From Octopus vulgaris (taxonomy: Eukaryota): 64,000 nucleotides of DNA. Position 1 is the first letter of the stretch. The number at the start of each line of letters is the position of its first letter. The position numbers and the translations under genes were made by a program. Shown in pieces: positions 12,270 to 64,000 of the stretch. The stretch covers positions 47,616,001 through 47,680,000 of the forward strand of contig OX597823.1 in assembly GCA_951406725.2 (NCBI GenBank), in the 5' to 3' direction. The notes under the pieces are model-generated. The model ran no database searches, had not been told where the DNA came from, and saw only the letters and a program-made list of their open reading frames with translations.

Positions 12270-14002
12270 ATATATATATAGATAGATAAACAGAAGTAAA
12301 TGAACAAATAAGAAATTTAGTGCTCAACATATTTGGTTAGAGTTACATGTATTTAATAACAATCTGGCTTAACCCTTCATTACTTGATGTAAGGAACTGA
12401 TTTTACCAATTATGTCATCCTGCTGATTGCCTGTCTGCTTTATCATGTAGATTTATGAATAAAATGATGCTTCGACAGTAAAGACAACTACATTATGCAA
12501 ATTGAACAATGAAGGCCTAAATACTTAGAAGCGATTTTAAATTTTCACTGCTCTGTCTCCAAACATCTGATGAATTGGATAGGCCCACGAAAGTTTTAAG
12601 AAATGCTGAGCTGAGTCAAACTGTTAGCAAATATGTGTGTGTGTGTTCTGCACACACGTATTGTGATTATGCACACACACACACATATAAATGAAATACT
12701 TTCTCTCTCAAAAAAGAAAGCTAATTCGGATATTAAATATAGTTAAATTTGGAGGAAAATTTTAAGTCAACATTATACTATATATATTTAAATCATGCAA
12801 AATATATCTATAAAACACTTTGAGAGTCATCCCCACTGCACTAAATCGCAGCCTACCAGCAAACAAGCTGAGCAGATACATTGAGCATGTGTGTTCGATA
12901 ATACAAAATCACACACCTACAAACACTTTATTCATTTACATCTTCAAAATCATTAAGCAGCATTGTCCTATATTTTGCTATTGTTTGGAAAAAGTGTGTA
13001 TGTATGTGTGTGCACACAAACACACATATATAGAAATACATACATTGTTTCATGTCATTTCCTTCCCCACCACATAATCATCACTATAGTCTATCATCTG
13101 TGGAACTCTTAAGAATAAAATATTCTCAGAAGAAATTCTGTCTTTTAAAAATATATTGCATTGTTGTCAAAACCAGGAGTGATATTTTAAATATATATAT
13201 TTGGCTGATAAAAACTCACATTTGAATGACTTGAAAATATACAAAAAAAGAAATAATAAAAAAGGAAAGAAATAGGTACCAAATGGCTATGTGGAGGAAA
13301 TGAATAAAATGAAACAATTTATTAAGGAAAATAATGGAATTGTGAGAGTTATATTAAATATAAGGAAAAAATGTTCTTGTTTAATTATTGACCTTCTTAA
13401 ACAATGTTGAAGACTAGGTGGTTTCTTTGTTATGACATCCACGTATTGGATTTTCACACAGACAACTGGCATAAACATAATGAGAATAAGAATTAGTAAC
13501 CAGAAGGCTTTTAACAGTGTTCCCACCCTCTCTCTTTCTCTTCTCTCTCTCAGATTGAGATAATAATAAGCTTATATATTGGTTTCATATTTTGGCACAA
13601 GGCCAGCAATTTCGTAGGAGGGACTAAGTTGATTACATCAACCCCAGCACTCGGCTGGTACTTATTTTCTTGACTCTGAAAGGATGAAATGGAAAGTTAA
13701 CCTTGGCGGAATTTGAACTCAGAACATAAAGACGGACAAAATATGGCTAAGCATTTTGCCTGGCATGCTAACAATTCTGCCTGATTGCCTGCCTTAATAA
13801 GCTCATATATGAATTATATCATGAGTAAATGGCAAATAATTTTGTAGATACAGGCGCAGGTGTGGCTGCACAGTAAGAAGCTTGCTTCCCAACCATATGG
13901 TTGCAGGATCAGTCCCCATGGGAAAGTGTCTTCTACTATAACCTCGAACCAACTGAGGCTTTGTGTGTGGATTTGGTAGATGGAAACTGAAAGAAGCCCA
14001 TC

Positions 14003-17945: not shown

Positions 17946-18605
17946 GGCATAGGAAATAAGGTGTAACTGTCGGTTAAGAAGGTTGCTTCCTAGCCACATG
18001 GGTTCACTTCAATCCTACCGTGTGGCAAGTGTTTTCTACTATAGACTCAGGCTGATCGAAGAATTGTGAGTGGATTTGGTAGACGGAAAATATATCGTGT
18101 GTGTGTGTGAGTGCGTGTGTATAAGTGTGTGTGTGTTTATGTTTGTGTTTGTCTCCCACCTTGCTTGAAACCCGGTGATGGTGTCTTTACGTCCCCTTAA
18201 TCTAGCATTTCAACAAAAGAGAACAATAGATTAAGTGACAAGCTTTAAAAAAAAAAGACAAGTACAGGGGTCGATTCCTTCCACTAAAAATTCTTATTTC
18301 TTTATTGCCCACAAGTGGCTAAATACAGAGGGGACAAACAAGGACAGACAAAGGGATTAAGTCAATTGCATCGACCCCAGTGCGTAACTGGTACTTAATT
18401 TATCGACCCCAAAAGGATGAAAGGCAAAGTCGACCTCGGCGGAATTTGAACTTGGAACGTAACAGTAGACGAAATACCGCTAAGCACTTCGCCCGGCGTG
18501 CTAACGTTTCTGTCAGCTTGCCGCCTTCTCATTCAACTAAAAATTCTTCAAGGCGTTGCTCCAGCATGGCTGCAATCTAATTATTCAAATCAAGTAAAAG
18601 TTAGA
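17944..18605 (+). mobile_element. SINE family A interrupted by a family B SINE
   Basis: The family A body is split at ACTAAAAATTCTT, which is duplicated on both sides of the insert. Confidence 0.85.
18296..18527 (-). mobile_element. SINE family B with the CTTGTGGGCAATAAAG tail, flanked by TSD
   Basis: Minus-strand full-length copy. TSD TTCMACTAAAAATTCTT at about 18279-18295 and 18532-18548. Confidence 0.88.
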
Positions 18606-19605: not shown

Positions 19606-20087
19606 CTGTAAATCCTCGAGTATAGTCCGCCCTTGAGTATAATACGCAGGGGATTTTTAGGAGGCTGTACCTCTGAAAAACCTAAATCTTGTGTATAATA
19701 CGCACCCCTTCTCTAATTTGAGTCAAGGAGGGCTATATTAACGTCATTGGTTTGTAAAACTGTATACGGTAACGTCCTTTATTATTATTGTATATATAAC
19801 ATAATGCAAACATGTAGCTTTTTTGTGCAGTTTGTCTGCAGAAAATAAAGAAATAACAGTAATAACATTTAATAAATGTTGCTAACTGCAAGTTTTGGAT
19901 GATTTAAGGTATTTTCGCGCTCGACATCACAAAATGCGTCTGAATAAACATTGCCGGACAGCAAATAGAGACTCGGACATTGCTTAAAAAATGATTTTCA
20001 TTTTTAACCTCGTATATAGCACGCACTAGGGATTTTGACCTTTAAATTTTTGGGGAAAAAATGCAGATCATACTCGAGGATTTACGG
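19606..20087. mobile_element. Tc1/mariner (pogo/Tigger-like) MITE
   Basis: TIRs CTGTAAATCCTCGAGTAT / ATACTCGAGGATTTACGG with TA on both sides. Confidence 0.85.
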
Positions 20088-21331: not shown

Positions 21332-21660
21332 TGTATAAGACCACCTTGACGTATATGATAGGAGAGAACAGATGATCGATAGAGTCTGGAGTAATTTTCT
21401 TACTAACCCACTAATGTGTACGGTCAACAAGTCTATCAAGGGTGAGGGTGTGGTCCCGGTTGTATAATTAGCATAGATAACACACAACATGCTCTGAACT
21501 TAATATTTTATTGACCACATTTTTGTCTTGTTAAACAGCCTAATCAACCTTTTCAATGTCAAATGTATTTAGGCGACGCCCTTTCTGTAATTTCTCAGAC
21601 TTTTTTACAAATTCTTGATTCCTTGGGCAACAAACTTGTTATTTATAATGTAGAAATATT

Positions 21661-23600
21661 CTAGAAGCTTGCTTTCCAGTGTGCAATGCCAAACGGCTCC
21701 GATAGGTGGCCGTTTACTTTGACCAATAAATAGGTGCCACTGTGCATTGCAGCGATCCAGCCTCTGTAAACGGGTCCGAAACCGCTTGCTTTCCAGACGG
21801 CTTCCAAGTAGCCATGGTCGACCCTATCGAATGCTTTTGATTGATCCAAATTGATGAGAACATCCCCGAAGCCGGCTGTGGTCCCAGCCCTCTCTATGAT
21901 GTATCGCATAAGGTGGGGGTTGTCGCGGATAAACCAGCTCGGGATTACGCATGTTTGTGCTTCTCCGACCAGGCTACCGACAACAAACGCTAACCTTTTC
22001 GCTAACACCTTGGCCAAAACCTTAAATTCTGTGTTTAGCAGCAAATATGACATGAATACAGAATTAGTAGCGAAGATCATCAAAATCGGGCGATCCGCGA
22101 CTTGTGCAATCGCTCATCACCTCCCAAATTTCAGCGGCTGTTATCGGCCTCTCACATAACCTCATGTCAGCTGCTGAGAGCTGCGGCAAGCTGTCCAAGT
22201 ACGAACTTTAGTCCAGTACCGTCGTTGACTCTTCGCCTTCTCCAGACAGTCGCGCGAAGTGCTGCTGAAAAGTCACACACATCTGCGCAGAGTCGCGTAG
22301 CACGCGCCCATCCCGATCCGTCAAAGACCTGATCGTGTTTTTGATTCCACGTCGTGTCTCCACTGTTCGAGCGAACGGGCCTTAGCTCTAACAACGCAAC
22401 CTTCATGTTTCGCTTCGAATAAACGATCAAGAGTCATTCTCGCCGCTAGCACATCGGTCGCAATGCTCTTTTTAATCGCCTGTTCTAATTTGCTAACTAG
22501 TTCACCCTCTAATCTAGAGGGTGAACTAGTTCACCCAGCTTCTGTCGGGGCATAGACGACCACCAATCTAAGGGCGCCACTTTCGCTACCATTCAATTCT
22601 AAGACCACCAACCTACCGCCCGGATCTAAGATCATTGCCTTTACTTCGAGATCTAAGGATTTTCAGAATAGCACTGCTACACCACCAGACAGACCACATG
22701 ATGAGAATATCTCATAGTCATCGAATATGGGTGCTAATGCTTGCACATTAGAAATCCTTATCTCGCTAATTGCAGCCACATCTAAATCGACCGACCTGAG
22801 GTTGTTTAGCAAATTACCTTTCTTCCAAGCTGACTCCAGGCTACGAACATTCACACACCTTACTCTGAAAACAACCATGTTTATCAGAGAAATAAATAGA
22901 AGGTCACTTACCTTAAATTTTGAGAGGGTCGGCTGATTCAGCTGTCTCGTCTGACACATTAGCATTAATGAAGGGCCTTCCTAAAGTCCTCTTAAAATTC
23001 TTAAGTTCGTGTCGGGAGTTTATGGTGTATCTATGTCGGCCGCCTGTAGGGATGGTCTGGCGTTGCTTGTTTCCACTGCTTCAGTTGTTGGTGCCATTGT
23101 GGTGATGGGATTCCGTTGTGGAAAGTTATGCTTTAACGGCTGTTGCTGCACTGATTGTTGTTGCAGCTTTTGGCCTTCTTGAGGTGGTAGTGGTAGCTCG
23201 TTTCTCGAGCTCCATTTTGTGGATTTTGTAGGCAGCCGACCTTCAAATGGGCGTTAGACCCACAAGTGTAGCACCTTGCTCCGTTGAGCAGCTCTATAAG
23301 GTCGGGGACCTTGTCCAGGGATTTCGGTTTTATCTGGATCAAAATCTCCAACTCGATTCCGGATCAGTTCTCCTTCCGATATTTTTTCATTTCTAGAAGC
23401 GAATCCGAGCCTTCGACCACAGCGCAAACAACCAATTACCAAATGTCTAATTCTGGTGGCACTATTTCAACTTTCACCACTCGCCGTCTAAGGTATGTGG
23501 GAAAATAATCTGCCGCTTTCAAAACAAAAACAAAAAAACGATATCAAAACTACCAAACTGCAAAGCGGCAGGACCAGACGGAATTCAAGGCTACTGGCTC
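21661..23600 (-). mobile_element. Decayed, internally deleted Tx1/L1-clade LINE (ORF1 knuckle, APE endonuclease and RT remnants)
   Basis: Minus-strand translations. ORF1: YFPTYLRRRVVKVEIVPPELD and RCYTCGSNAHLKVGC. Endonuclease: NVRSL..LDVAAISE..SGGVAVLF..DPGGRLVVLE..VVYAPT. RT: LLNTEFKVLAKVLAKRL..EAQTCVIP..LDQSKAFDRVDHGYL..VKVNGHLSEPF. Stops and deletions throughout. Confidence 0.9.
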
Positions 23601-23654: not shown

Positions 23655-23847
23655 CATTTAAATGAACAATGCAATCATTACATCAATTTAAATGCAGGGT
23701 CATCCTCAGATGCTTAAATAAATAGAATTTTTTGATCAGTCGGACACATTAATATAATTTTACTTAAATTCTCTAATAGTGCATGAAGAGGGAAAAAGTC
23801 CATGTTGCATTTAAAGTGATGTAATGATTGCATTGTTCAATTAAATG
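23655..23847. repeat. Inverted-repeat element (MITE-like), arms of about 42 bp
   Basis: CATTTAAATGAACAATGCAATCATTACATCAATTTAAATGCA pairs with TGCATTTAAAGTGATGTAATGATTGCATTGTTCAATTAAATG. Confidence 0.75.
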
Positions 23848-28779: not shown

Positions 28780-29940
28780 TTCATCTAATGGGAGAGTCGT
28801 GGGGGAAAAATCTCCAAGCACGCCTTCCATCTGGTCCTTTCTGAAATAATCGCTTCCAGTAGACCCGGCTGGATCCCCTAACGGGACCAACTGAGCTCGT
28901 GGGTGTTGTCTAACCATCTTACTTGTGGTTTACCCCTGAGTCTCCAGTAGGTGGGTTTTACCGTCCGCAGTATCGGAGCTGTGATCTCTCAATTCGGAGA
29001 AGTAGCAGCTCTACCTGGAGTCCCTTTCTGATTTCTGATCTACATACTCTATTGACTAACGCTATTCCAAAGAATTCTCTCTGAGGAACTCCATCTCGGC
29101 TGCTTGTACTCACGATGGTATTCTTTCGGTCATTACCCAAGATTCATAACCATCGTAAGGGTAACCACGAATCATGTGCGGTAAGTATATCGTCATCATT
29201 TTACCGCAGGGTAAGTTCGCCATCATCAATTCACCGCTTTTTTTTTCTTCAATAAAACAGTTTTTAACTATTAATGGTGAGATACTATAGATATATTTTT
29301 ATATTTTCTCAGTAAACTTTTCTAGTGGAAAGTTACTATACGTAAATTGATGGCAGCGAACTTACTTGTAATCTGCTATATCAAACGGAAGATAGCGAGT
29401 TTGTTTTTACACCTATCTCTCTTCTTCTTATGATCAAATGTTGAAGCAGGCGTGTTACTGCACCATGTCCTGCAATTATTGTATTTAACTGAGCCTCCTG
29501 CCTTCCATTACTTGTGAAAACGGCCCTGAGATACTTGAAATTTTCCATCTGCTTCAGTGGAACTTCATTCACATGTAGAGTGCATTGTGCAGGCTTCCTT
29601 GAGAGGATAGAGGAGAAGTGTCTCAGTCTTTGCAGTACTGATTTTTCATTCCTACCAAACAGCCCTCGACAGTGAATCTATCACGTACATGACGGAGATC
29701 ACAGTAAAGACGTCCAAGGTTAAGACATGAGAGGACTTTGGGATTAAGCTACAATCCGACTTCAGATCATCAAATAAAATATTCTGTAAGACCAACGGTC
29801 GACTTCGTAGTAAGAAATACCCTTCTATGCCCACTATCAGGAATCACTTGAGGTCCTTCTGTCTGAAAAGAAGTACATCTTCGCGAGGTGGAGAGAATAC
29901 TTTGCTGATCTCCTAAACCCGGTCATATTTTCTAACGTAC
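28780..29940 (-). mobile_element. Decayed RTE-clade LINE with inverted 5' segment
   Basis: Minus strand: MKISTAKTE, LKQMENFKYLRAVFTSNGR, LQVELLLLRIERSQLRY. Plus strand 29650-29940: LLSEKKYIFARWREYFADLLNP. Confidence 0.8.
29207..29369. mobile_element. Small MITE inserted in an RTE fragment
   Basis: Inverted repeats GTAAGTTCGCCATCATCAATT / AATTGATGGCAGCGAACTTAC. Confidence 0.65.
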
Positions 29941-39093: not shown

Positions 39094-39330
39094 AGGTGGT
39101 GATTTGGCAGAAAGGTTAGCACGCAGGACGAAATGCTTAATGGTATTTCGTCTGCCGTTACGGTCTGAGTTCAAATTCCGCCGAGGTCAACTTTGCTTTT
39201 CATCCTTTCGGGGTCGATTAAATAAGTACCAGTTATACACTGGGGCTGATGTAATTGACTTAATCCCTTTGTCTGTCCTTGTTTGTCCCCTCTATGTTTG
39301 GCCCCTTGTGGGCAATAAAGAAATAAAATA
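39094..39330 (+). mobile_element. SINE family B with the GGCCCCTTGTGGGCAATAAAG tail
   Basis: Full-length copy whose last ~47 nt match the 3' end of the array units. Confidence 0.88.
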
Positions 39331-40965
39331 AATAAATAAATAAATTTATTATCATTACATAGCTGAATAAGGTGGTAAGCTGGCAGATTCATTAGCATAC
39401 TGGACAAAATGCCTTACATTCTGAGTTCAAATTCAGCTCAGGTCGACTTTACCTCTCTTTCTTTTGGAGTCAATAAAATAAGTACCAGTTGAGCAGTGGA
39501 GTTGATGTAATCCACAGGTCCATCCCCCAAATTTCAGGCCTTGTGCCTATTGCAGAAAGGATTATTACATATATGAATAAAGGAAGTTTATTATTATTAT
39601 TATACTGGACCCAGTACCAAGAACAGAATAATTAGTTTAATCAATTAGTTGTCCTAGTTAATGAATTAAATCTTCAATATAATAAACTAAAAGAATTAAA
39701 TGAAGGAAAACTATGGAAAATAAAACAACAAAAATTAAGATAGAATCAAGTGCTTCAAAGAATATGCTTTATTTGCAGTCAAGTAAGAAAGCAAAATGCA
39801 TATCGAAAATTATTATGAAACAACTATTGAAAGACAACTATGTATGCTCAAATCTTTGTCACGGTATATACCAATATCATGGGATGGGAACTTGGATCTC
39901 AATGTATCAAATATATAGAGACCTACAAGAATGACTATCAAAATATCAAAATAAGCCAGTTTATTGTTTGTCCTCAGAAAGCTTAAGTCAAACTGGGAAT
40001 AATATTTTTTCATAGGCATTTTCTCTGCTAACCCCCAAAATATTAAACAAACAAAAATAGCACTGTTGCACTAAATGATTGTATCAAATGTTTGGTAACA
40101 ATCTGTTGTGACAAGACACTAATCCTATATTTAATACAGAGACTCTTTAATATTAAATATTTAATATTTTACATTTAGTATCAAATATATTAAAGGTAAA
40201 TATATTAACACATGTATTAAAATATTTTAATATTTATTACTAAATTCTGGCCTTGTGCCAAAATTTGAAACCAATATTTATTACCAATATTTATTGCTAA
40301 ATTTCAAATTTAACAGTAAGCTACTGATATTAATCATATTAACAGGTAATATATTGGTTTCAAATTTTGGCTCAAGGCCAGCAATTAGGGGGAAGGTGGT
40401 AGGTTGATTACATTGACCCCAGTACTTAACTGGTACTTATTTTATCAACCATAAAAGGATGAAAGGCAAAGTCAACCCTGGCAACATTTCAACTCAGAAC
40501 ATAAAATCAGAAGAAATGCCGCTAAGCATTTTGTCTGGTGCAGCAACAATTTTGCCAGATTGCTACCCATTAATAGATATATATATATTAAAATATTTTG
40601 ATATTTGATATTATTTAATATCAAATACATTAAGTGTTATAACATAAGACAAATAACACATTTGTGCTCATATAATAACTTTATAAATGCACAAAGAAAA
40701 CATGGAAACAATTCCAAACTGAAGTGCAAAATGGTGAACTGTAACTTCAATTGTCCACGATGCAAAATGAACTGTCTATACCATGGTAAGTGTGCTAAGG
40801 TGAAAAGAGTAAGTCCACAACAATAAATCAATGTAAATCTAACATCACCTGATAGACTCCATAAAGTGTCCCCCTGGATGAATTGATGTAAACTTAAATA
40901 ATAGACAATCTGGGAGTGAAAAATATCACATGACAAAATCGTGTCCATTGATTGGATGACACTAA

Positions 40966-42746: not shown

Positions 42747-43485
42747 AGGCAATGTATTACTTGTAAACTTTGACAGCAAAATCTTATATGGACCCTGATT
42801 GAGAACGACTGATCTAAACAATTGTATTGATCGGTTTGCTGTGTAATGCTATTTTGCATAAGAGGTGGAGCACAGCTAAGTCATGAGAGTTACTATATAT
42901 AGAAGTCAAACGGCTGATGATTGCATGAATGATAACTATGGCGATATGGACATATGAAGTGAATGGTAGTTATGTACGAACACTAGACACTACCAATGGC
43001 TGAGTTAGACTAAGAAAGAAGAGGTAATATCAAATTGTTGGATGCTGAGCAACACAGACGAGATGAAATGGGTTCAAGATGGGTTGTATTAGCATTAAGA
43101 TAGTAAACTGGTAGAATTGTGAGTACTGCAGTCAAAATATTTTGTGGCATTTAGTCTGCCATCATGTTCTGAGTTGAAATTTGGCCAAGGTCAACTCTGC
43201 CTTTCTTTCTTCTGGGGGGGATCAATGAAATAAGTACCAGTTGAACACTAGAGTCGATGTAATCAGCTTACCCTCTCCTCAGAAACAGCTTGCCTTGTGC
43301 CAAAAATTTGAAGCTTATATGTTGTATTAGCAGACATATTCATCTTATACCAACATGACAAAAAGAAAAGGCATAAAAACAAGAAGGACGATGATGATGA
43401 TGATGATGACGCCGATGCCGACGATGATGATGATGATGACGATGGTGGTGGTGGTGGTGGTAGACTAACTTTCTTGTCTATTCAT

Positions 43486-43886
43486 AATCCTTTCTACTAG
43501 AAGCACAAGGCCTCAAATTTAGAGGAAGGGATCAAGTTAATTACATCGACCCCAGTGCATAACTGGTACTAATTTTATCGACCCCGGAAAGGATGAAAGG
43601 CAAAGTTGATCCCAGCAGCATTTGAACTCAGTACATTAAAACAGATGAAATACCTATTTCTTTACTACCCACAAGGGACTAAACACAGAGAGGACAAACA
43701 AGGACAGACAAACGGATTAAGTTGATTATATTGACCCCAGTGCGTAACTTGTACTTATTTAATCGACCCCGAAAGGATGAAAGGCAAAGTCGACCTTGGT
43801 GGAATTTGAACTCAGATCATAGTGGCAGACAAAATACTGCTAAGCATTTCACCTGGCGCGCTAACATTTCTGCCAGCTTGCCACCT
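43486..43886 (-). mobile_element. Compound/dimeric family B SINE within one TSD
   Basis: TTTCTTGTCTATTCATAAT on both sides. Two bodies with different tails lie between. Confidence 0.8.
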
Positions 43887-44818
43887 TTTTCTTGTCTATT
43901 CATAATGAACACAGGGAAGGAATGCGATGGTTATGATTTGAAAGCTGTGTATCTGTATTAACCTCTTGTCACACTGATTAAGAACAACACTCAGAATTAT
44001 TTAACCAAAGTTTTACAACCAAAATTCTTATGAACAATGTTAACCAAACTTATAAAGAATAGTAGTGATAAACCACTGGAGATGGTGATGTTAACCTCTT
44101 ATAATATTTACTGAGAGTAAATGATTGGTGTTATCTCTGTCTTGATAGTAAGTTAGAGAAAAACAAGAAAAACTGAAACAAGTAAATTTAATTTCCATTC
44201 CCTAGATTTATATGAATTATTTTCAGAGAATTTCTTAAAGAATGGTTAATATTTTTGCTAATGACAGAGAATTAAGGTGAATATTATTTTTATCAAGTTA
44301 ATAAATTGCTTGTAATAATGATGTCACAATTGAGTTCTGGTTTCTTTATATAATTTGATTGGAATTTTGTGTGTCCTTGTAGACAACTAAACATGGTTAC
44401 GTTAACTGTCCAGCAGGTTTACAATCATTAATCTATTTAGTATTTCCTATCAGATTTTGTCTGGGAAATCTGTTTGATTTTTTTACCATTTCAGGAAGAT
44501 ACTTTCCTGAGAACTATTTTGCTAATTCATTTATTTATTTTCATTTATTTTTTTAATCTTTCTCAGTCACATGAAGAATTCTTGCTGCTGCCGAATGGTA
44601 AAGATGCACTTCTATTTACTCTCTTCTCATGGTCTCAGACCAACTTAACATATCCCACTTGTCTCTTAACCCTTTAAGCATTTAAGCCAGCCATATCCAG
44701 CCAAAATATTCTACCTGCTTTATGTTCAAACAGACCATGTCATTCTAAAAGTAAACAATCACATCATCAAAATCTTGAAGCTATGAGATAATACGTGGTT
44801 AATTCAAAACAATGTGAA

Positions 44819-52376: not shown

Positions 52377-52558
52377 ACGTGGTTTTTTCGGCTCTGTGTT
52401 TTTTGCTCTCTGTGAAATTCGGTAAAAAGAAAAAAGAACAAAAAGTGAATGGTTGTTGGTGTAAAATTTTGAACATAGTTGATGAGGTTTCGCGTCTCAC
52501 TGGTTCTGCGCGTTACACTTTTTCGGTTCGGGAGGCCGTTTCTCGGCCGGAGGCGACT

Positions 52559-53887
52559 ATGAGCCGCCTCCATCAAGCGGAGGAGATGGAAGGGAGAATT
52601 TACTCTGAAATTTCGACGGAAGTATCGACATCTGAGGAGGAGTTGGCGGTGAAAAAGATGGAAGGCACCTACGCAGGTGTAACGAAGAAGTCAACGGAAA
52701 GAGAGATAGACTTGGCTAAGTTGGCGGGCCTCCAGGAATTTGTGAAGGAGGACGAGAACGGTGAAGTTGAGCTGCTGCATCCAGTAGGGTGCGGAGACTG
52801 GTTCCATCGTAGAACCATTAAATATATAGTATTTATGAATGGAGGTAGAAAGATGGAAGTAATCAACATGGAAGCAATTGAAGAGGCTCTCAAGCAGACA
52901 GGAGAGGAAATTGTGTACATGACAAAAGGATTACAATACGGAACGATAACGGTGCAATTTAAAAGCGAAAAAGCAGCCAGGAATGTAGCAGCCAAGGTGG
53001 TGAGTACAGAAAAGATTTACTTGTTACCCTCGTATCTGAATAGGCGGACAACTAGAATTAGGGTGGAGGGAATACCTCCACACCTAGAGGGCGAATTAAT
53101 AACGGCTGCGGTTATAAAAGGAAATGAAGATAAAGTGGACATCCTCCACGCCATTATGAAGTATGAAGGCGTGAGAGGTGCCACACTAGTTATGAACATT
53201 CAAGCGGAGGCGGATGTTATAGAGAGGATTACGGACAGCATAAAAACTGGAAATATTATTATGAGAGTGTGGGTGGAGGGTAGGGCGCCCAGGTGCTACA
53301 AGTGTGGCCAAAGGGGTCACATAAGAGCCTACTGCCCTCCCCCACCAAAGGAAAAAGAAAAGGAAAGCGTTGAGGAAGCCTCGGGAGAGGAAGAAAATAA
53401 ACAGAAACAAACAGAGAAGGAAACGACAGAAGAAGAGGAGATGCAACAAGAGTGGAAAGAAGCGGGAACAAAGAGAAAAAGAAGGAAAAAGAAAAACTGT
53501 GCGAAGCCCCAACCCACCCCGACACCACCCATACCCTTGGAGTCCCATCCTTCCCCTGCAAACAGTAATTCCACCCACTCCCCGCCTACAAGAAGAATAA
53601 AAACAGACACACAGAGCAAAGAAAGTCCCAAGACCCATTTTTTATTTGTTATACATGGGAGAGACGTACAAAACGTTAAAAAACTGGTGTTAACCAAGTG
53701 GTACGAACACGAAGAGTGGAGCTACACGGCTGTGGATGGTGATGATACGGGTATATTGGCGACAAGGTTAGAGGAAGAGGGTGTGTGTTGGAAGTCAGTG
53801 GAAATGAAAGATGAATGGATAGAGAGGGCTAAAAGAAAAACGAATGTTGTGATGGTTAAAACAGGAATACTAATTGAAAATGGGTGA
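52559..53887 (+). CDS. Array copy 1: 442-aa LINE ORF1p-like nucleic-acid-binding protein with CCHC zinc knuckle (intact)
   Basis: ATG at 52559 to TGA ending at 53887. CX2CX4HX4C knuckle RCYKCGQRGHIRAYC at 53294-53335, preceded by VEGRAPR. An RRM-like segment GTITVQFKSEKAA lies upstream, and an acidic/basic/Pro-rich linker follows the knuckle. Confidence 0.8.
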   Translation: MSRLHQAEEMEGRIYSEISTEVSTSEEELAVKKMEGTYAGVTKKSTEREIDLAKLAGLQEFVKEDENGEVELLHPVGCGDWFHRRTIKYIVFMNGGRKMEVINMEAIEEALKQTGEEIVYMTKGLQYGTITVQFKSEKAARNVAAKVVSTEKIYLLPSYLNRRTTRIRVEGIPPHLEGELITAAVIKGNEDKVDILHAIMKYEGVRGATLVMNIQAEADVIERITDSIKTGNIIMRVWVEGRAPRCYKCGQRGHIRAYCPPPPKEKEKESVEEASGEEENKQKQTEKETTEEEEMQQEWKEAGTKRKRRKKKNCAKPQPTPTPPIPLESHPSPANSNSTHSPPTRRIKTDTQSKESPKTHFLFVIHGRDVQNVKKLVLTKWYEHEEWSYTAVDGDDTGILATRLEEEGVCWKSVEMKDEWIERAKRKTNVVMVKTGILIENG

Positions 53888-54232
53888 AGAAGGACAGATA
53901 AGTGATGCTGGCGGATGGGGCCGTCGGTATCGCTCTCATATATCATTTTCATATTCCATTTTGCTCATATATATGTAATTGTGATGTTCCATGTCCCCAT
54001 GTCTTGTAATGTCCCCCTCTTCGTTGGCCCCTTGTGGGTAATAAAAAATCACGTGGTTTTTTCGGCTCTGTGTTTTTTGCTCTCTGTGAAATTCGGTAAA
54101 AAGAAAAAAGAACAAAAAGTGAATGGTTGTTGGTGTAAAATTTTGAACATAGTTGATGAGGTTTCGCGTCTCACTGGTTCTGCGCGTTACACTTTTTCGG
54201 TTCGGGAGGCCGTTTCTCGGCCGGAGGCGACT

Positions 54233-55562
54233 ATGAGCCGCCTCCATCAAGCGGAGGAGATGGAAGGGAGAATTTACTCTGAAATTTCGACGGAAGTATC
54301 GACATCTGAGGAGGAGTTGGCGGTGAAAAAGATGGAAGGCACCTACGCAGGTGTAACGAAGAAGTCAACGGAAAGAGAGATAGACTTGGCTAAGTTGGCG
54401 GGCCTCCAGGAATTTGTGAAGGAGGACGAGAACGGTGAAGTTGAGCTGCTGCATCCAGTAGGGTGCGGAGACTGGTTCCATCGTAGAACCATTAAATATA
54501 AAGTATTTATGAATGGAGGTAGAAAGATGGAAGTAATTAACATGGAAGCAATTGAAGAGGCTCTTAAGCAGACGGGAGAGGAAATTGTGTACATGACGAA
54601 AGGATTACAATACGGAACCATAACGGTGCAATTTAAAAGTGAAAAAGCAGCCAGGAATGTAGCAGCCAAGGTGGTGAGTACAGAAAAGATTTACTTGTTA
54701 CCCTCGTATCTGAATAGGCGGACAACTAGAATTAGGGTGGAGGGAATACCTCCACACCTAGAGGGCGAAGTAATAACGGCTGCGGTTATAAAAGGAAATG
54801 AGGATAAGGTGGACATCCTCCACGCCAGTATGAAGTATGAAGGCGTGAGAGGTGCCACACTGGTTATGAACATTCAAACGGAGGCGGATGTTATAGAGAA
54901 GATTACGGACAGCATAAAGACTGGAAATATTATTATGAGAGTGTGGGTGGAGGGTAGGGCGCCCAGGTGCTACAAGTGTGGCCAAAGGGGTCACATAAGA
55001 GCCTACTGCCCTCCCCCACCAAAGGAAAAAAGAAAAGGAAAGCGTTGAGGAAGCCTCGGGAGAGGAAGAAAATAAACAGAAACAAACAGAGAAGGAAACG
55101 ACAGAAGAAGAGGAGATGCAACAAGAGTGGAAAGAAGCGGGAACAAAGAGAAAAAGAAGGAAAAAGAAAAACTGTGCGAAGCCCCAACCCACCCCGACAC
55201 CACCCATACCCTTGGAGTCCCATCCTTCCCCTGCAAACAGTAATTCCACCCACTCCCCGCCTACAAGAAGAATAAAAACAGACACACAGAGCAAAGAAAG
55301 TCCCAAGACCCATTTTTTATTTGTTATACATGGGAGAGACGTACAAAACGTTAAAAAACTGGTGTTAACCAAGTGGTACGAACACGAAGATTGGAGCTAC
55401 ACGGCTGTGGATGGTGATGATACGGGTATATTGGCGACAAGGTTAGAGGAAGAGGGTGTGTGTTGGAAGTCAGTGGAAATGAAAGATGAATGGATAGAGA
55501 GGGCTAAAAGAAAAACGAATGTTGTGATGGGTAAAACAGGAATACTAATTGAAAATGGGTGA
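54233..55562 (+). pseudogene. Array copy 2 ORF1-like, +1 frameshift in an A-run
   Basis: A6 instead of A5 at 55026-55031, otherwise full length. May be a homopolymer sequencing error. Confidence 0.7.
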
Positions 55563-55906
55563 AGAAGGACAGATAAGTGATGCTGGCGGATGGGGCCGTC
55601 GGTATCGCTCTCATATATCATTTTCATATTCCATTTTGCTCATATATATGTAATTGTGATGTTCCATGTCCCCATGTCTTGTAATGTCCCCCTCTTCGTT
55701 GGCCCCTTGTGGGTAATAAAAAATCACGTGGTTTTTCGGCTCTGTGTTTTTTGCTCTCTGTGAAATTCGGTAAAAAGAAAAAAGAACAAAAAGTGAATGG
55801 TTGTTGGTGTAAAATTTTGAACATAGTTGATGAGGTTTCGCGTCTCACTGGTTCTGCGCGTTACACTTTTTCGGTTCGGGAGGCCGTTTCTCGGCCGGAG
55901 GCGACT

Positions 55907-57235
55907 ATGAGCCGCCTCCATCAAGCGGAGGAGATGGAAGGGAGAATTTACTCTGAAATTTCGACGGAAGTATCGACATCTGAGGAGGAGTTGGCGGTGA
56001 AAAAGATGGAAGGCACCTACGCAGGTGTAACGAAGAAGTCAACGGAAAGAGAGATAGACTTGGCTAAGTTGGCGGGCCTCCAGGAGTTTGTGAAGGAGGA
56101 CGAGAACGGTGAAGTCGAGCTGCTGCATCCAGTAGGGCGCGGAGACTGGTTCCATCGTAGAACCATTAAATATAAAGTATTTATGAATGGAGGTAGAAAG
56201 ATGGAAGTAATCAACATGGAAGCAATTGAAGAGGCTCTCAAGCAGACAGGAGAGGAAATTGTGTACATGACAAAAGGATTACAATACGGAACGATAACGG
56301 TGCAATTTAAAAGCGAAAAAGCAGCCAGGAATGTAGCAGCCAAGGTGGTGAGTACAGAAAAGATTTACTTGTTACCCTCGTATCTGAATAGGCGGACAAC
56401 TAGAATTAGGGTGGAGGGAATACCTCCACACCTAGAGGGCGAATTAATAACGGCTGCGGTTATAAAAGGAAATGAAGATAAAGTGGACATCCTCCACGCC
56501 ATTATGAAGTATGAAGGCGTGAGAGGTGCCACACTAGTTATGAACGTTCAAACGGAGGCGGATGTTATAGAGAAGATTACGGACAGCATAAAGACTGGAA
56601 ATATTATTATGAGAGTGTGGGTGGAGGGTAGGGCGCCCAGGTGCTACAAGTGTGGCCAAAGGGGTCACATAAGAGCCTACTGCCCTCCCCCACCAAAGGA
56701 AAAAGAAAAGGAAAGCGTTGAGGAAGCCTCGGGAGAGGAAGAAAATAAACAGAAACAAACAGAGAAGGAAACGACAGAAGAAGAGGAGATGCAACAAGAG
56801 TGGAAAGAAGCGGGAACAAAGAGAAAAAGAAGGAAAAAGAAAAACTGTGCGAAGCCCCAACCCACCCCGACACCACCCATACCCTTGGAGTCCCATCCTT
56901 CCCCTGCAAACAGTAATTCCACCCACTCCCCGCCTACAAGAAGAATAAAAACAGACACACAGAGCAAAGAAAGTCCCAAGACCCATTTTTTATTTGTTAT
57001 ACATGGGAGAGACGTACAAAACGTTAAAAAACTGGTGTTAACCAAGTGGTACGAACACGAAGATTGGAGCTACACGGCTGTGGATGGTGATGATACGGGT
57101 ATATTGGCGACAAGGTTAGAGGAAGAGGGTGTGTGTTGGAAGACAGTGGAAATGAAAGATGAATGGATAGAGAGGGCTAAAAGAAAAACGAATGTTGTGA
57201 TGGTTAAAACAGGAATACTAATTGAAAATGGGTGA
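55907..57235 (+). CDS. Array copy 3 ORF1-like zinc-knuckle protein, 442 aa (intact)
   Basis: 1329-bp open frame from the conserved ATG (MSRLHQ) to TGA. Confidence 0.8.
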   Translation: MSRLHQAEEMEGRIYSEISTEVSTSEEELAVKKMEGTYAGVTKKSTEREIDLAKLAGLQEFVKEDENGEVELLHPVGRGDWFHRRTIKYKVFMNGGRKMEVINMEAIEEALKQTGEEIVYMTKGLQYGTITVQFKSEKAARNVAAKVVSTEKIYLLPSYLNRRTTRIRVEGIPPHLEGELITAAVIKGNEDKVDILHAIMKYEGVRGATLVMNVQTEADVIEKITDSIKTGNIIMRVWVEGRAPRCYKCGQRGHIRAYCPPPPKEKEKESVEEASGEEENKQKQTEKETTEEEEMQQEWKEAGTKRKRRKKKNCAKPQPTPTPPIPLESHPSPANSNSTHSPPTRRIKTDTQSKESPKTHFLFVIHGRDVQNVKKLVLTKWYEHEDWSYTAVDGDDTGILATRLEEEGVCWKTVEMKDEWIERAKRKTNVVMVKTGILIENG

Positions 57236-57578
57236 AGAAGGACAGATAAGTGATGCTGGCGGATGGGGCCGTCGGTATCGCTCTCATATATCATTTTCAT
57301 ATTCCATTTTGCTCATATATATGTAATTGTGATGTTCCATGTCCCCATGTCTTGTAATGTCCCCCTCTTCGTTGGCCCCTTGTGGGTAATAAAAAATCAC
57401 GTGGTTTTTCGGCTCTGTGTTTTTTGCTCTCTGTGAAATTCGGTAAAAAGAAAAAAGAACAAAAAGTGAATGGTTGTTGGTGTAAAATTTTGAACATAGT
57501 TGATGAGGTTTCGCGTCTCACTGGTTCTGCGCGTTACACTTTTTCGGTTCGGGAGGCCGTTTTCGGCCGGAGGCGACT

Positions 57579-58907
57579 ATGAGCCGCCTCCATCAAGCGG
57601 AGGAGATGGAAGGGAGAATTTACTCTGAAATTTCGACGGAAGTATCGACATCTGAGGAGGAGTTGGCGGTGAAAAAGATGGAAGGCACCTACGCAGGTGT
57701 AACGAAGAAGTCAACGGAAAGAGAGATAGACTTGGCTAAGTTGGCGGGCCTCCAGGAATTTGTGAAGGAGGACGAGAACGGTGAAGTTGAGCTGCTGCAT
57801 CCAGTAGGGTGCGGAGACTGGTTCCATCGTAGAACCATTAAATATAAAGTATTTATGAATGGAGGTAGAAAGATGGAAGTAATTAACATGGAAGCAATTG
57901 AAGAGGCTCTTAAGCAGACGGGAGAGGAAATTGTGTACATGACGAAAGGATTACAATACGGAACCATAACGGTGCAATTTAAAAGTGAAAAAGCAGCCAG
58001 GAATGTAGCAGCCAAGGTGGTGAGTACAGAAAAGATTTACTTGTTACCCTCGTATCTGAATAGGCGGACAACTAGAATTAGGGTGGAGGGAATACCTCCA
58101 CACCTAGAGGGCGAAGTAATAACGGCTGCGGTTATAAAAGGAAATGAGGATAAGGTGGACATCCTCCACGCCAGTATGAAGTATGAAGGCGTGAGAGGTG
58201 CCACACTGGTTATGAACATTCAAACGGAGGCGGATGTTATAGAGAAGATTACGGACAGCATAAAGACTGGAAATATTATTATGAGAGTGTGGGTGGAGGG
58301 TAGGGCGCCCAGGTGCTACAAGTGTGGCCAAAGGGGTCACATAAGAGCCTACTGCCCTCCCCCACCAAAGGAAAAAGAAAAGGAAAGCGTTGAGGAAGCC
58401 TCGGGAGAGGAAGAAAATAAACAGAAACAAACAGAGAAGGAAACGACAGAAGAAGAGGAGACGCAACAAGAGTGGAAAGAAGCGGGAACAAAGAGAAAAA
58501 GAAGGAAAAAGAAAAACTGTGCGAAGCCCCAACCCACCCCGACACCACCCATACCCTTGGAGTCCCATCCTTCCCCTGCAAACAGTAATTCCACCCACTC
58601 CCCGCCTACAAGAAAAATAAAAACAGACACACAGAGCAAAGAAAGTCCCAAGACCCATTTTTTATTTGTTATACATGGGAAAGACATACAAAACGTTAAA
58701 AAACTGGTGTTAACCAAGTGGTACGAACACGAAGATTGGAGCTACACGGTTGTGGATAGTGATGATACGGGTATATTGGCGACAAGGTTAGAGGAAGAGG
58801 GTGTGTGTTGGAAGTCAGTGAAAATGAAAGATGAATGGAGAGAGAGGGCTAAAAGAAAAACGAATGTTGTGATAGGTGAAACAGGAATACAAATTGGAAA
58901 TGGGTGA
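57579..58907 (+). CDS. Array copy 4 ORF1-like zinc-knuckle protein, 442 aa (intact, variant C-terminus)
   Basis: ORF track 57579..58907. C-terminus VVIGETGIQIGNG rather than VVMVKTGILIENG. Confidence 0.8.
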   Translation: MSRLHQAEEMEGRIYSEISTEVSTSEEELAVKKMEGTYAGVTKKSTEREIDLAKLAGLQEFVKEDENGEVELLHPVGCGDWFHRRTIKYKVFMNGGRKMEVINMEAIEEALKQTGEEIVYMTKGLQYGTITVQFKSEKAARNVAAKVVSTEKIYLLPSYLNRRTTRIRVEGIPPHLEGEVITAAVIKGNEDKVDILHASMKYEGVRGATLVMNIQTEADVIEKITDSIKTGNIIMRVWVEGRAPRCYKCGQRGHIRAYCPPPPKEKEKESVEEASGEEENKQKQTEKETTEEEETQQEWKEAGTKRKRRKKKNCAKPQPTPTPPIPLESHPSPANSNSTHSPPTRKIKTDTQSKESPKTHFLFVIHGKDIQNVKKLVLTKWYEHEDWSYTVVDSDDTGILATRLEEEGVCWKSVKMKDEWRERAKRKTNVVIGETGIQIGNG

Positions 58908-59251
58908 AGAAGGACAGACAAGTGATGCTGGCGGATGGGGCCGTCGGTATCACTCTCATATATCATTTTTCATATTCCATTTTGCTCATATATATGTAAT
59001 TGTGATGTTCCATGTCCCCATGTCTTGTAATGTCCCCCTCTTCGTTGGCCCCTTGTGGGTAATAAAAAATCACGTGGTTTTTCGGCTCTGTGTTTTTTGC
59101 TCTCTGTGAAATTCGGTAAAAAGAAAAAAGAACAAAAAGTGAATGGTTGTTGGTGTAAAATTTTGAACATAGTTGATGAGGTTTCGCGTCTCACTGGTTC
59201 TGCGCGTTACACTTTTTCGGTTCGGGAGGCCGTTTTCGGCCGGAGGCGACT

Positions 59252-60578
59252 ATGAGCCGCCTCCATCAAGCGGAGGAGATGGAAGGGAGAATTTACTCTG
59301 AAATTTCGACGGAAGTATCGACATCTGAGGAGGAGTTGGCGGTGAAAAAGATGGAAGGCACCTACGCAGGTGTAACGAAGAAGTCAACGGAAAGAGAGAT
59401 AGACTTGGCTAAGTTGGCGGGCCTCCAGGAATTTGTGAAGGAGGACGAGAACGGTGAAGTTGAGCTGCTGCATCCAGTAGGGTGCGGAGACTGGTTCCAT
59501 CGTAGAACCATTAAATATAAAGTATTTATGAATGGAGGTAGAAAGATGGAAGTAATTAACATGGAAGCAATTGAAGAGGCTCTTAAGCAGACGGGAGAGG
59601 AAATTGTGTACATGACGAAAGGATTACAATACGGAACCATAACGGTGCAATTTAAAAGTGAAAAAGCAGCCAGGAATGTAGCAGCCAAGGTGGTGAGTAC
59701 AGAAAAGATTTACTTGTTACCCTCGTATCTGAATAGGCGGACAACTAGAATTAGGGTGGAGGGAATACCTCCACACCTAGAGGGCGAAGTAATAACGGCT
59801 GCGGTTATAAAAGGAAATGAGGATAAGGTGGACATCCTCCACGCCAGTATGAAGTATGAAGGCGTGAGAGGTGCCACACTGGTTATGAACATTCAAACGG
59901 AGGCGGATGTTATAGAGAAGATTACGGACAGCATAAAGACTGGAAATATTATTATGAGAGTGTGGGTGGAGGGTAGGGCGCCCAGGTGCTACAAGTGTGG
60001 CCAAAGGGGTCACATAAGAGCCTACTGCCCTCCCCACCAAAGGAAAAAGAAAAGGAAAGCGTTGAGGAAGCCTCGGGAGAGGAAGAAAATAAACAGAAAC
60101 AAACAGAGAAGGAAACGACAGAAGAAGAGGAGACGCAACAAGAGTGGAAAGAAGCGGGAACAAAGAGAAAAAGAAGGAAAAAGAAAAACTGTGCGAAGCC
60201 CCAACCCACCCCGACACCACCCATACCCTTGAGTCCCATCCTTCCCCTGCAAACAGTAATTCCACCCACTCCCCGCCTACAAGAAAAATAAAAACAGACA
60301 CACAGAGCAAAGAAAGTCCCAAGACCCATTTTTTATTTGTTATACATGGGAAAGACATACAAAACGTTAAAAAACTGGTGTTAACCAAGTGGTACGAACA
60401 CGAAGATTGGAGCTACACGGTTGTGGATAGTGATGATACGGGTATATTGGCGACAAGGTTAGAGGAAGAGGGTGTGTGTTGGAAGTCAGTGAAAATGAAA
60501 GATGAATGGATAGAGAGGGCTAAAAGAAAAACGAATGTTGTGATAGGTGAAACAGGAATACAAATTGGAAATGGGTGA
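59252..60578 (+). pseudogene. Array copy 5 ORF1-like, two 1-bp deletions
   Basis: C4 instead of C5 at 60032-60035 and G instead of GG at 60231. Both lie in homopolymers. Confidence 0.7.
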
Positions 60579-60923
60579 AGAAGGACAGACAAGTGATGCT
60601 GGCGGATGGGGCCGTCGGTATCACTCTCATATATCATTTTTCATATTCCATTTTGCTCATATATATGTAATTGTGATGTTCCATGTCCCCATGTCTTGTA
60701 ATGTCCCCCTCTTCGTTGGCCCCTTGTGGGTAATAAAAAATCACGTGGTTTTTCGGCTCTGTGTTTTTTGCTCTCTGTGAAATTCGGTAAAAAGAAAAAA
60801 GAACAAAAAGTGAATGGTTGTTGGTGTAAAATTTTGAACATAGTTGATGAGGTTTCGCGTCTCACTGGTTCTGCGCGTTACACTTTTTCGGTTCGGGAGG
60901 CCGTTTCTCGGCCGGAGGCGACT

Positions 60924-62253
60924 ATGAGCCGCCTCCATCAAGCGGAGGAGATGGAAGGGAGAATTTACTCTGAAATTTCGACGGAAGTATCGACATCTGA
61001 GGAGGAGTTGGCGGTGAAAAAGATGGAAGGCACCTACGCAGGTGTAACGAAGAAGTCAACGGAAAGAGAGATAGACTTGGCTAAGTTGGCGGGCCTCCAG
61101 GAATTTGTGAAGGAGGACGAGAACGGTGAAGTTGAGCTGCTGCATCCAGTAGGGTGCGGAGACTGGTTCCATCGTAGAACCATTAAATATAAAGTATTTA
61201 TGAATGGAGGTAGAAAGATGGAAGTAATTAACATGGAAGCAATTGAAGAGGCTCTTAAGCAGACGGGAGAGGAAATTGTGTACATGACGAAAGGATTACA
61301 ATACGGAACCATAACGGTGCAATTTAAAAGTGAAAAAGCAGCCAGGAATGTAGCAGCCAAGGTGGTGAGTACAGAAAAGATTTACTTGTTACCCTCGTAT
61401 CTGAATAGGCGGACAACTAGAATTAGGGTGGAGGGAATACCTCCACACCTAGAGGGCGAAGTAATAACGGCTGCGGTTATAAAAGGAAATGAGGATAAGG
61501 TGGACATCCTCCACGCCAGTATGAAGTATGAAGGCGTGAGAGGTGCCACACTGGTTATGAACATTCAAACGGAGGCGGATGTTATAGAGAAGATTACGGA
61601 CAGCATAAAGACTGGAAATATTATTATGAGAGTGTGGGTGGAGGGTAGGGCGCCCAGGTGCTACAAGTGTGGCCAAAGGGGTCACATAAGAGCCTACTGC
61701 CCTCCCCCACCAAAGGAAAAAAGAAAAGGAAAGCGTTGAGGAAGCCTCGGGAGAGGAAGAAAATAAACAGAAACAAACAGAGAAGGAAACGACAGAAGAA
61801 GAGGAGATGCAACAAGAGTGGAAAGAAGCGGGAACAAAGAGAAAAAGAAGGAAAAAGAAAAACTGTGCGAAGCCCCAACCCACCCCGACACCACCCATAC
61901 CCTTGGAGTCCCATCCTTCCCCTGCAAACAGTAATACCACCCACTCCCCGCCTACAAGAAAAATAAAAACAGACACACAGAGCAAAGAAAGTCCCAAGAC
62001 CCATTTTTTATTTGTTATACATGGGAAAGACATACAAAACGTTAAAAAACTGGTGTTAACCAAGTGGTACGAACACGAAGATTGGAGCTACACGGTTGTG
62101 GATAGTGATGATACGGGTATATTGGCGACAAGGTTAGAGGAAGAGGGTGTGTGTTGGAAGTCAGTGAAAATGAAAGATGAATGGATAGAGAGGGCTAAAA
62201 GAAAAACGAATGTTGTGATAGGTGAAACAGGAATACAAATTGGAAATGGGTGA
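60924..62253 (+). pseudogene. Array copy 6 ORF1-like, +1 frameshift in the same A-run as copy 2
   Basis: A6 at 61717-61722. Confidence 0.7.
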
Positions 62254-62599
62254 AGAAGGACAGACAAGTGATGCTGGCGGATGGGGCCGTCGGTATCACT
62301 CTCATATATCATTTTTCATATTCCATTTTGCTCATATATATGTAATTGTGATGTTCCATGTCCCCATGTCTTGTAATGTCCCCCTCTTCGTTGGCCCCTT
62401 GTGGGTAATAAAAAATCACGTGGTTTTTTCGGCTCTGTGTTTTTTGCTCTCTGTGGAATTCGGTAAAAAGAAAAAAGAACAAAAAGTGAATGGTTGTTGG
62501 TGTAAAATTTTGAACATAGTTGATGAGGTTTCGCGTCTCACTGGTTCTGCGCGTTACACTTTTTCGGTTCGGGAGGCCGTTTCTCGGCCGGAGGCGACT

Positions 62600-63928
62600 A
62601 TGAGCCGCCTCCATCAAGCGGAGGAGATGGAAGGGAGAATTTACTCTGAAATTTCGACGGAAGTATCGACATCTGAGGAGGAGTTGGCGGTGAAAAAGAT
62701 GGAAGGCACCTACGCAGGTGTAACGAAGAAGTCAACGGAAAGAGAGATAGACTTGGCTAAGTTGGCGGGCCTCCAGGAATTTGTGAAGGAGGACGAGAAC
62801 GGTGAAGTTGAGCTGCTGCATCCAGTAGGGTGCGGAGACTGGTTCCATCGTAGAACCATTAAATATAAAGTATTTATGAATGGAGGTAGAAAGATGGAAG
62901 TAATTAACATGGAAGCAATTGAAGAGGCTCTTAAGCAGACGGGAGAGGAAATTGTGTACATGACGAAAGGATTACAATACGGAACCATAACGGTGCAATT
63001 TAAAAGTGAAAAAGCAGCCAGGAATGTAGCAGCCAAGGTGGTGAGTACAGAAAAGATTTACTTGTTACCCTCGTATCTGAATAGGCGGACAACTAGAATT
63101 AGGGTGGAGGGAATACCTCCACACCTAGAGGGCGAAGTAATAACGGCTGCGGTTATAAAAGGAAATGAGGATGAGGTGGACATCCTCCACGCCAGTATGA
63201 AGTATGAAGGCGTGAGAGGTGCCACACTGGTTATGAACATTCAAACGGAGACGGATGTTATAGAGAAGATTACGGACAGCATAAAGACTGGAAATATTAT
63301 TATGAGAGTGTGGGTGGAGGGTAGGGCGCCCAGGTGCTACAAGTGTGGCCAAAGGGGTCACATAAGAGCCTACTGCCCTCCCCCACCAAAGGAAAAAGAA
63401 AAGGAAAGCGTTGAGGAAGTCTCGGGAGAGGAAGAAAATAAACAGAAACAAACAGAGAAGGAAACGACAGAAGAAGAGGAGATGCAACAAGAGTGGAAAG
63501 AAGCGGGAACAAAGAGAAAAAGAAGGAAAAAGAAAAACTGTGCGAAGCCCCAACCCACCCCGACACCACCCATACCCTTGGAGTCCCATCCTTCCCCTGC
63601 AAACAGTAATTCCACCCACTCCCCGCCTACAAGAAGAATAAAAACAGACACACAGAGCAAAGAAAGTCCCAAGACCCATTTTTTATTTGTTATACATGGG
63701 AGAGACGTACAAAACGTTAAAAAACTGGTGTTAACCAAGTGGTACGAACACGAAGATTGGAGCTACACGGCTGTGGATGGTGATGATACGGGTATATTGG
63801 CGACAAGGTTAGAGGAAGAGGGTGTGTGTTGGAAGTCAGTGGAAATGAAAGATGAATGGATAGAGAGGGCTAAAAGAAAAACGAATGTTGTGATGGTTAA
63901 AACAGGAATACTAATTGAAAATGGGTGA
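62600..63928 (+). CDS. Array copy 7 ORF1-like zinc-knuckle protein, 442 aa (intact)
   Basis: 1329-bp open frame from the conserved ATG to TGA. Confidence 0.8.
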   Translation: MSRLHQAEEMEGRIYSEISTEVSTSEEELAVKKMEGTYAGVTKKSTEREIDLAKLAGLQEFVKEDENGEVELLHPVGCGDWFHRRTIKYKVFMNGGRKMEVINMEAIEEALKQTGEEIVYMTKGLQYGTITVQFKSEKAARNVAAKVVSTEKIYLLPSYLNRRTTRIRVEGIPPHLEGEVITAAVIKGNEDEVDILHASMKYEGVRGATLVMNIQTETDVIEKITDSIKTGNIIMRVWVEGRAPRCYKCGQRGHIRAYCPPPPKEKEKESVEEVSGEEENKQKQTEKETTEEEEMQQEWKEAGTKRKRRKKKNCAKPQPTPTPPIPLESHPSPANSNSTHSPPTRRIKTDTQSKESPKTHFLFVIHGRDVQNVKKLVLTKWYEHEDWSYTAVDGDDTGILATRLEEEGVCWKSVEMKDEWIERAKRKTNVVMVKTGILIENG

Positions 63929-64000
63929 AGAAGGACAGATAAGTGATGCTGGCGGATGGGGCCGTCGGTATCGCTCTCATATATCATTTTCATATTCCAT

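Follow-up and report, generated by a model that had tools for sequence, protein, structure and literature searches.

Features of the locus

The window, that is the whole stretch of 64,000 nucleotides which we have analysed, belongs to contig OX597823.1 of Octopus vulgaris; all positions are counted from its first letter. Its last part is an array of tandem units with a single open reading frame, which end in a short tail that is also found in a SINE family of the same window. The array has the following features:

52377..64000, + strand: head-to-tail array of ORF1-only units of about 1,674 bp (1.67 kb)
52559..53887, + strand: ORF1 of unit 1, 442 aa, with RRM-like domains at about aa 78–162 and 161–243, a CCHC knuckle at 245–260, a low-complexity linker and a small C-terminal region
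53888..54048, + strand: 3'UTR of unit 1, 161 nt, without a recognised ORF2 remnant
53973..53981, + strand: 9-nt match to a segment common to all versions of the SINE
53985..54048, + strand: tail version A in unit 1 (C-rich tract, hairpin, AATAAA and a run of A); its repeats end at 55723, 57396, 59069, 60740 and 62415
54027–54030 with 54036–54039, + strand: 4-bp stem of unit 1, around the CUUGU loop at 54031–54035

There are six complete units and a seventh one truncated at the end of the window, with 97.9–99.3% identity to unit 1. The tail is identical in all six complete units. The only ORF of the unit is homologous to the ORF1 of LINEs and no remnant of ORF2 is found in the array: ten ORF2 queries compared with the window match only at 21679–22854. 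In this the unit is like the ORF1-only non-autonomous LINEs. Four of the seven units have a full ORF1; the frameshifts in the remaining ones are single-base indels in short homopolymer runs and could be read errors.

The borders of the units are very regular. All six internal junctions are identical and consist of the tail plus 2 nt, and the first unit of the array begins at the same place: its 5' flank has six A plus 2 nt ahead of the unit start, matching the internal junctions. This one boundary would fit self-targeting of the array in the window. The units are mosaics of haplotypes, which show later DNA-level exchange between them. Gene models related to the unit are present on several O. 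vulgaris chromosomes. Two gene models of this species (P0022 and P0197) match the C-terminal region of ORF1 (window 53600–53884) with a near-identical stretch joined to two copies of a diverged version, a layout hinting at mixed-family arrays elsewhere.

The protein of the unit

An exhaustive protein search gave 253 relatives of ORF1, and a word-indexed search with the ORF of the unit gave no relative among 5,733 candidates. We looked up 22 of the 253; ten of them carry a species name, nine from Octopus and one from Argonauta. HAL1 proper, which derives from mammalian L1, is ruled out: the named relatives are those just given and the ORF1 has the order RRM-RRM-CCHC. The zinc knuckle scores slightly below the Pfam cut-off, and zinc knuckles are the only matches in a sequence search of the PDB. 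Folding of the single sequence was uninformative (pLDDT 40). A model built from an alignment of 60 sequences has a pLDDT of 69.5 overall and about 84–96 across the core; proteins with RRMs in tandem resemble it (best E=2.5e-5 in one comparison, and best Z 9.4 with rmsd 2.5 and 82 aligned in another). In the ESM Atlas, CCHC and ZCCHC3-type clusters appear at 0.87–0.92, which we take as a lead only.

The two parts of the protein differ in their variants. Variants common to at least two units are nine synonymous and two non-synonymous in codons 1–262 (omega 0.06, p=4e-5), as against none synonymous and 12 non-synonymous in codons 263–442 (Fisher p=7e-5 between halves). The RNA-binding half is under purifying selection, and the C-terminal part is possibly under relaxed or diversifying selection.

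ORF1 is related to that of complete ORF1+ORF2 elements (tblastn E=2e-13, 26% identity over 176 aa) and to the ORF1 remnant of a decayed LINE in the window (23232–23504; 31%, E=1e-7). The ORF1 tree has 43 rows (thinning at 90% identity). One of its clades, of 16 rows (100/100), includes both the window LINE and the unit, in separate subgroups. These comparisons support the view that the unit is an ORF1-only element of the Tx1-like LINE group, whose natural 3' end would be the common tail.

A SINE family with three tail versions

We have aligned 15 SINE copies with the same head and body. Three of them have the tail of the unit, which we call version A, and the rest have tails of type B or C. 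The presence of three tail versions on one SINE had not been noticed in the preliminary description of this DNA. The copies discussed here are:

39094..39325, + strand: SINE copy with tail A, flanked by a 15-bp direct repeat
18296..18527, - strand: SINE copy with tail A, flanked by a 20-bp direct repeat with 2 mismatches
43655..43887, - strand: SINE copy with tail A, joined to a tail-B copy at 43484–43654; one 19-bp direct repeat lies around the pair
39369..39563, + strand: SINE copy with tail B, loop at 39540; best match of the LINE-tail models described below
about 20294 (+) and about 43509 (-): further B tails
13577..13795, - strand: SINE copy with tail C, loop at 13601
near 11060 (+), 11290 (+), 15441 (-), 16387 (-), 16600 (-), 40252 (+), 40375 (-) and 43295 (+): further C-type tails

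The SINE is about 230 nt long. Motifs like box A and box B were seen by eye only; ARAGORN finds 0 tRNA genes, and no tRNA is present among the matches listed (150 of 193 Rfam matches). The Rfam matches in the window are microsatellite artefacts. The body may be of Deu/Nin type. Direct repeats scoring at least 10 surround eight of 14 SINE copies or composites, with boundaries set by hand, as compared with 3.2% of 500 controls; their length is 12–25 bp. Target duplications of 15 bp are reported for an L1-type enzyme and of 5 bp for an L2-type one (PMC4245944). The long duplications around the SINE fit the L1 type better than the L2 type. RTE elements likewise make long duplications.

SINE copies often adjoin head-to-tail, as in 39094–39563, 16360–16788, 10874–11318 and 43484–43887; they may have inserted in the manner of the LINE arrays described below. 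About nine tandem copies of 87 bp containing the 5' head of the SINE are found in 10142–10916, directly upstream of two SINE copies. A fragment of tail C without the SINE body is found alone at 40244–40270 (+).

The likeness between the unit and the SINE had been recognised at the unit end (54003–54048) and in the SINE tail at 39278–39324, and we find both there, with the same 21 identities in 22 nt. The tail is also present on the minus strand at 18296–18345 and 43654–43705, as claimed, with 19 of 22 in each case when counted by eye, so that the figure quoted earlier was that of the best copy. A blastn comparison of the 48-nt tail with the three SINE copies gives E=3e-6, 0.002 and 0.006. The last 59 nt of the unit reach a score of 49 against the window outside the array; none of 300 dinucleotide shuffles does so (maximum 33), and other windows of the unit score at most 37. 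Over the last 62–64 nt the unit tail is 69–74% identical to the SINE-A tails, with gaps, whereas the SINE-A copies are 89–94% identical among themselves without any gap.

Complete relatives of the unit

Relatives with both ORFs were collected by a scan of contigs with an alignment of ten reverse transcriptase (RT) relatives: 127 pattern matches gave 99 confirmed ones, of which 80 were kept, in 66 loci. The loci overlap, and 51 of the 66 (L001–L050 and L056, in contigs CAXXMW01) come from a single record. That record is filed as a bacterial MAG, yet many of its contigs are mostly tandem full-length LINEs of eukaryotic type. Their ORF2 is near-identical while their ORF1 and 5'UTR vary. They are likely host DNA of another animal, not octopus, contaminating a reference genome set. 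The elements have ORF1 and ORF2 and are arranged head-to-tail; the ORF2 of L001 has an endonuclease, an RT and a zf-RVT domain, which is the autonomous form, as in the Tx1 clade.

Of the 51 loci examined, three are too short; the other 48 have 800 nt or more beyond the ORF2 stop, and all of them have a hairpin 591–699 nt downstream of this stop. It has a stem around CU(U/C/A)GU, a C-rich tract ahead and AATAAA behind, and it occurs in 17 distinct tails of two divergent families. Every type of tail has a junction sequence of its own behind it. At the end of three arrays (L013:7448, L021:7423, L040:3594) we find the tail plus 11–17 nt of its own junction and then unrelated DNA, which suggests insertion at a target repeated by the element's own 5' end (self-targeting). 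In the 15 more distant loci, several of them without a complete 3'UTR, the hairpin model has no match under E=1. Three distant Tx1-like elements (L052:7054, L053:4750, L059:7220) end directly at the 5' end of U1 snRNA inside U1/U2/5S repeat units.

The decayed LINE of the window should be placed among these elements:

21679..23570, - strand: decayed Tx1-like LINE with internal deletions and the 3' half missing; ORF1 remnant at 23232–23504, endonuclease remnant at about 22534–22854, RT remnant at 21679–22056

It is interrupted inside the RT, about 500 codons short of the end: of the 912 residues of its closest ORF2 relative (P0155), the alignment goes no further than number 415. The RT tree (34 rows) places it with the tail-bearing LINEs (18 rows, 98/99), away from its neighbours, which are frog RT proteins with a fused ZCCHC3-type domain and the elements that end at U1 snRNA genes. 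Membership of the Tx1 clade is putative, as the rows of the trees include no named reference Tx1 element.

This LINE had been considered as the direct partner of the unit, which is not borne out: its ORF1 is only 31% identical and belongs to a different subgroup. For the same reason we have rejected it as the direct parent; a shared ORF1 clade with different subgroups makes it a cousin. A 12/13-nt echo of the tail had also been mentioned downstream of it, at 21507–21519. It is present at chance level: 147 of 978 overlapping control windows equal it (best of four tails), although one fixed 13-mer pattern of this kind is expected no more than 0.32 times per window. We discard it as evidence of a tail; it is also without the 5' arm of the stem and the C-rich tract and lies about 160 nt past the break of the LINE inside the RT. 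A 42-bp inverted repeat (95% identical) is found just upstream of the decayed LINE, at 23655–23696 and 23806–23847. In 28800–29700 (-) we have seen by eye a putative decayed C-terminal RT fragment of another LINE type.

The hairpin in LINE and SINE tails

In tails A, B and C alike, a C-rich tract is accompanied by a CUUGU loop closed by a 4-bp stem. A small stem-loop had been proposed for the tail, and it can indeed form: the pair probability is 0.5–0.8 in the full 3'UTR or the full SINE, as against 0.02–0.15 in fragments of 60 nt. Folding of whole tails of 81 nt shows no gain over shuffles (13 tails).

The octopus tails differ in their relation to the LINE tails. A profile made from LINE tails alone gives octopus B and C tails the first six places (16.2 bits at best, and 8.5 for the best of 30 shuffles), and a covariance model from ten LINE tails has them in its top four rows. 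Tail A is retrieved neither by the profile, searched to E 50, nor by the covariance model, searched to E 10. A weak profile match at 20012–20057 (-), with 8.2 bits, is inside the shuffle range. In the stem, 97.5% of the cells are paired across 20 distinct rows (slid controls 30–59%) and three of the four pairs change on both sides; the rows were anchored on the loop by hand, the number of independent events is small, and three two-sided pairs are also reached by 129 of 500 shuffles. The two inner pairs are G-C in the LINE, B and C tails but C-G in A, and the outer pair is A-U, U-A or G-C. Sites with this loop and at least three G-C pairs number eight in 1–54048, all of them at these tails, as compared with 0.36 in 100 shuffles, for a descriptor which was chosen post hoc with the data in view. 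Tail A thus appears to be tied to the LINE tails through the loop and the flipped stem pairs only, and tails B and C by their sequence.

Tail A could come from an unrelated LINE clade or be a convergent hairpin, only B and C being derived from Tx1-like elements. Its absence from the results of both models would agree with such an origin, as would the lack of a second stem in A and its longer pyrimidine tract. We consider it quite improbable, since tail A has the same 5-nt loop, the same closing pair and the same place on the SINE, with two adjacent pairs flipped together, and the post hoc descriptor has a chance of about 1e-4 per 40 nt. Furthermore, the element that ends in A has an ORF1 of this lineage.

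Origin of the tail of the unit

The relation between unit and SINE could also be explained by a passive insertion. A SINE truncated at its 5' end might have landed passively behind a stray fragment of ORF1 and been amplified as a satellite, the tail having no role for the unit. DNA-level exchange does take place in the array, as the mosaic haplotypes and the identical junctions (6/6) show. Yet such an accident is very hard to reconcile with the other data: 2 nt separate the end of the tail from the boundary that the first copy of the array defines, a coincidence of about 0.3% in 1,674 nt; ORF1 is under purifying selection; related gene models are spread over several chromosomes; and the complete relatives, too, are arrayed head-to-tail, their hairpin being in the same place. 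The divergence between the tails of the unit and SINE-A argues against it as well.

A more elaborate possibility is that template switching gave the ORF1-only element the last 75–80 nt of an old SINE-A RNA, which now serve as its functional 3' end, so that the tail passed from the SINE to the unit and not from a LINE to both. The 9-nt match at 53973..53981 is in its favour: it extends to the part that all SINE versions have in common, at 58 nt ahead of the loop in the unit and 56 nt in the SINE, with a chance of about 0.003. So is the rest of the 3'UTR of the unit, which has no convincing match in the six LINE 3'UTRs tested (8 to 83 of 200 shuffles score equally). On the other hand the unit tail is far more diverged than the SINE-A copies are among themselves, so any capture would have to be old, and the 9-mer itself could be derived from a LINE, in an alignment which is only suggestive. 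On balance we regard a capture as rather unlikely.

A LINE origin explains the data better. The tail probably belongs natively to the 3' end of LINEs in one branch of a Tx1-like (L1-group) lineage of invertebrates; the unit would be an ORF2-less derivative and the SINE tails would come from different branches. This reading is built on what can be established from sequence, namely the sharing of the tail, the ancestry of ORF1, the hairpin 3' of the complete relatives and the flips of the stem. The RNAs of the lineage would end in a C-rich tract, a stem of 4–5 bp with a CUNGU loop and AATAAA. As a non-autonomous derivative, the unit would have kept the 5'UTR, the selected ORF1 and the 3' end and lost ORF2; its RNA would make ORF1p and borrow ORF2p from an autonomous octopus family, presumably one carrying version A. 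ORF2p would bind the hairpin and prime at an A/T-rich nick, giving target-primed reverse transcription. Template switching with several such families could have given the SINE its tails A, B and C. The array may have started by insertion at the element's own junction sequence, a target repeated by its own 5' end, to be reshuffled later by unequal exchange. For O. vulgaris, 421 near-full-length insertions are reported from 13 L1-Tx1 families with recent activity (PMC13282606), so candidate autonomous partners exist.

The preliminary description had suggested a system of three parts with one tail: an autonomous Tx1-like LINE, the ORF1-only element and the SINE. It stands in so far as the ORF1-only Tx1-like unit does end in the tail and the hairpin is present in complete relatives from the same RT clade; the echo and the window LINE as partner do not form part of it. 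The tail was expected after full LINEs with ORF2: the hairpin is there, the match by sequence concerns B and C and is found across species only, and tail A was seen on none of the autonomous elements covered.

A wider reading, which we offer tentatively as somewhat short of probable, is that the invertebrate Tx1-like lineage has kept stringent recognition through a hairpin with a CUNGU loop across distant animals. Octopus branches with different stems would each drive one tail version of the SINE, and one of them would also support a selected ORF1-only element which stacks at its own junction into arrays like those of HeT-A.

Comparison with known systems

L1-group elements are the textbook case of the relaxed type of recognition. 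No report of this tail, of a LINE partner for an octopus SINE or of an ORF1-only Tx1 element was found in the literature covered; one may exist in Repbase, in Dfam or in subscription papers such as that of 1994 on octopus SINEs. The octopus SINEs OK, OR1 and OR2, and the tRNA-Core and tRNA-Deu classes, may be comparable with the SINE described here, which is abundant, about 230 nt long and by eye has motifs like box A and box B. The share of SINEs in the O. vulgaris genome is given as 11.6% (PMC13282606).

Other ORF1-only elements resemble the unit. HAL1 (half-L1), HeT-A and Ag-Sponge are described as coding only for ORF1p and having a LINE-like end (PMC5786205, PMC5753468), and HeT-A also as being arranged head-to-tail (PMC10088271). 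They derive from mammalian L1, Jockey and CR1 respectively, whereas the unit would derive from a Tx1-like octopus lineage and has a structured tail in common with a SINE.

The tail itself is comparable to those of the stringent SINE/LINE pairs of L2, CR1 and RTE (UnaL2, ZfL2-1/2), for which the accounts consulted describe a short 3' stem-loop with a conserved loop and a variable stem, as well as swapping of tails on one SINE body (PMC4176376, PMC4824008). They differ in that the octopus partner would belong to the L1 group, with a putative recognition of the tail. Within that group, LINE1-1_ZM with ZmSINE2/3 and L1-1_CR with SINEX-3_CR are similar: a hairpin tail shared with SINEs, compensatory changes in the stem and a conserved loop (PMC3472496, PMC3747384). 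The three SINEs with L1 tails given in that survey are from plants and a green alga, none from animals (PMC3472496, PMC3747384). In crocodilians, SINEU elements are thought to be mobilised by Tx1 (Tx1-Mar) and have tandem insertions around a target duplication; there the link was drawn from target preference, and in that account no LINE matches the 3' half of SINEU-1 (PMC4494074).

Our best reading is thus a tail sharing of the stringent type in an animal L1/Tx1 lineage, among a LINE, an ORF1-only element like HAL1 or HeT-A and a SINE. If it is true, the partner of the abundant octopus SINEs would have a name, and an animal L1-group system would be at hand for testing the transition from stringent to relaxed recognition. 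The natural variants of the 4-bp stem, present in LINEs, in SINEs and in an ORF1-only element, would provide ready constructs to study the choice of template by L1-group RTs and whether stringency is ancestral.
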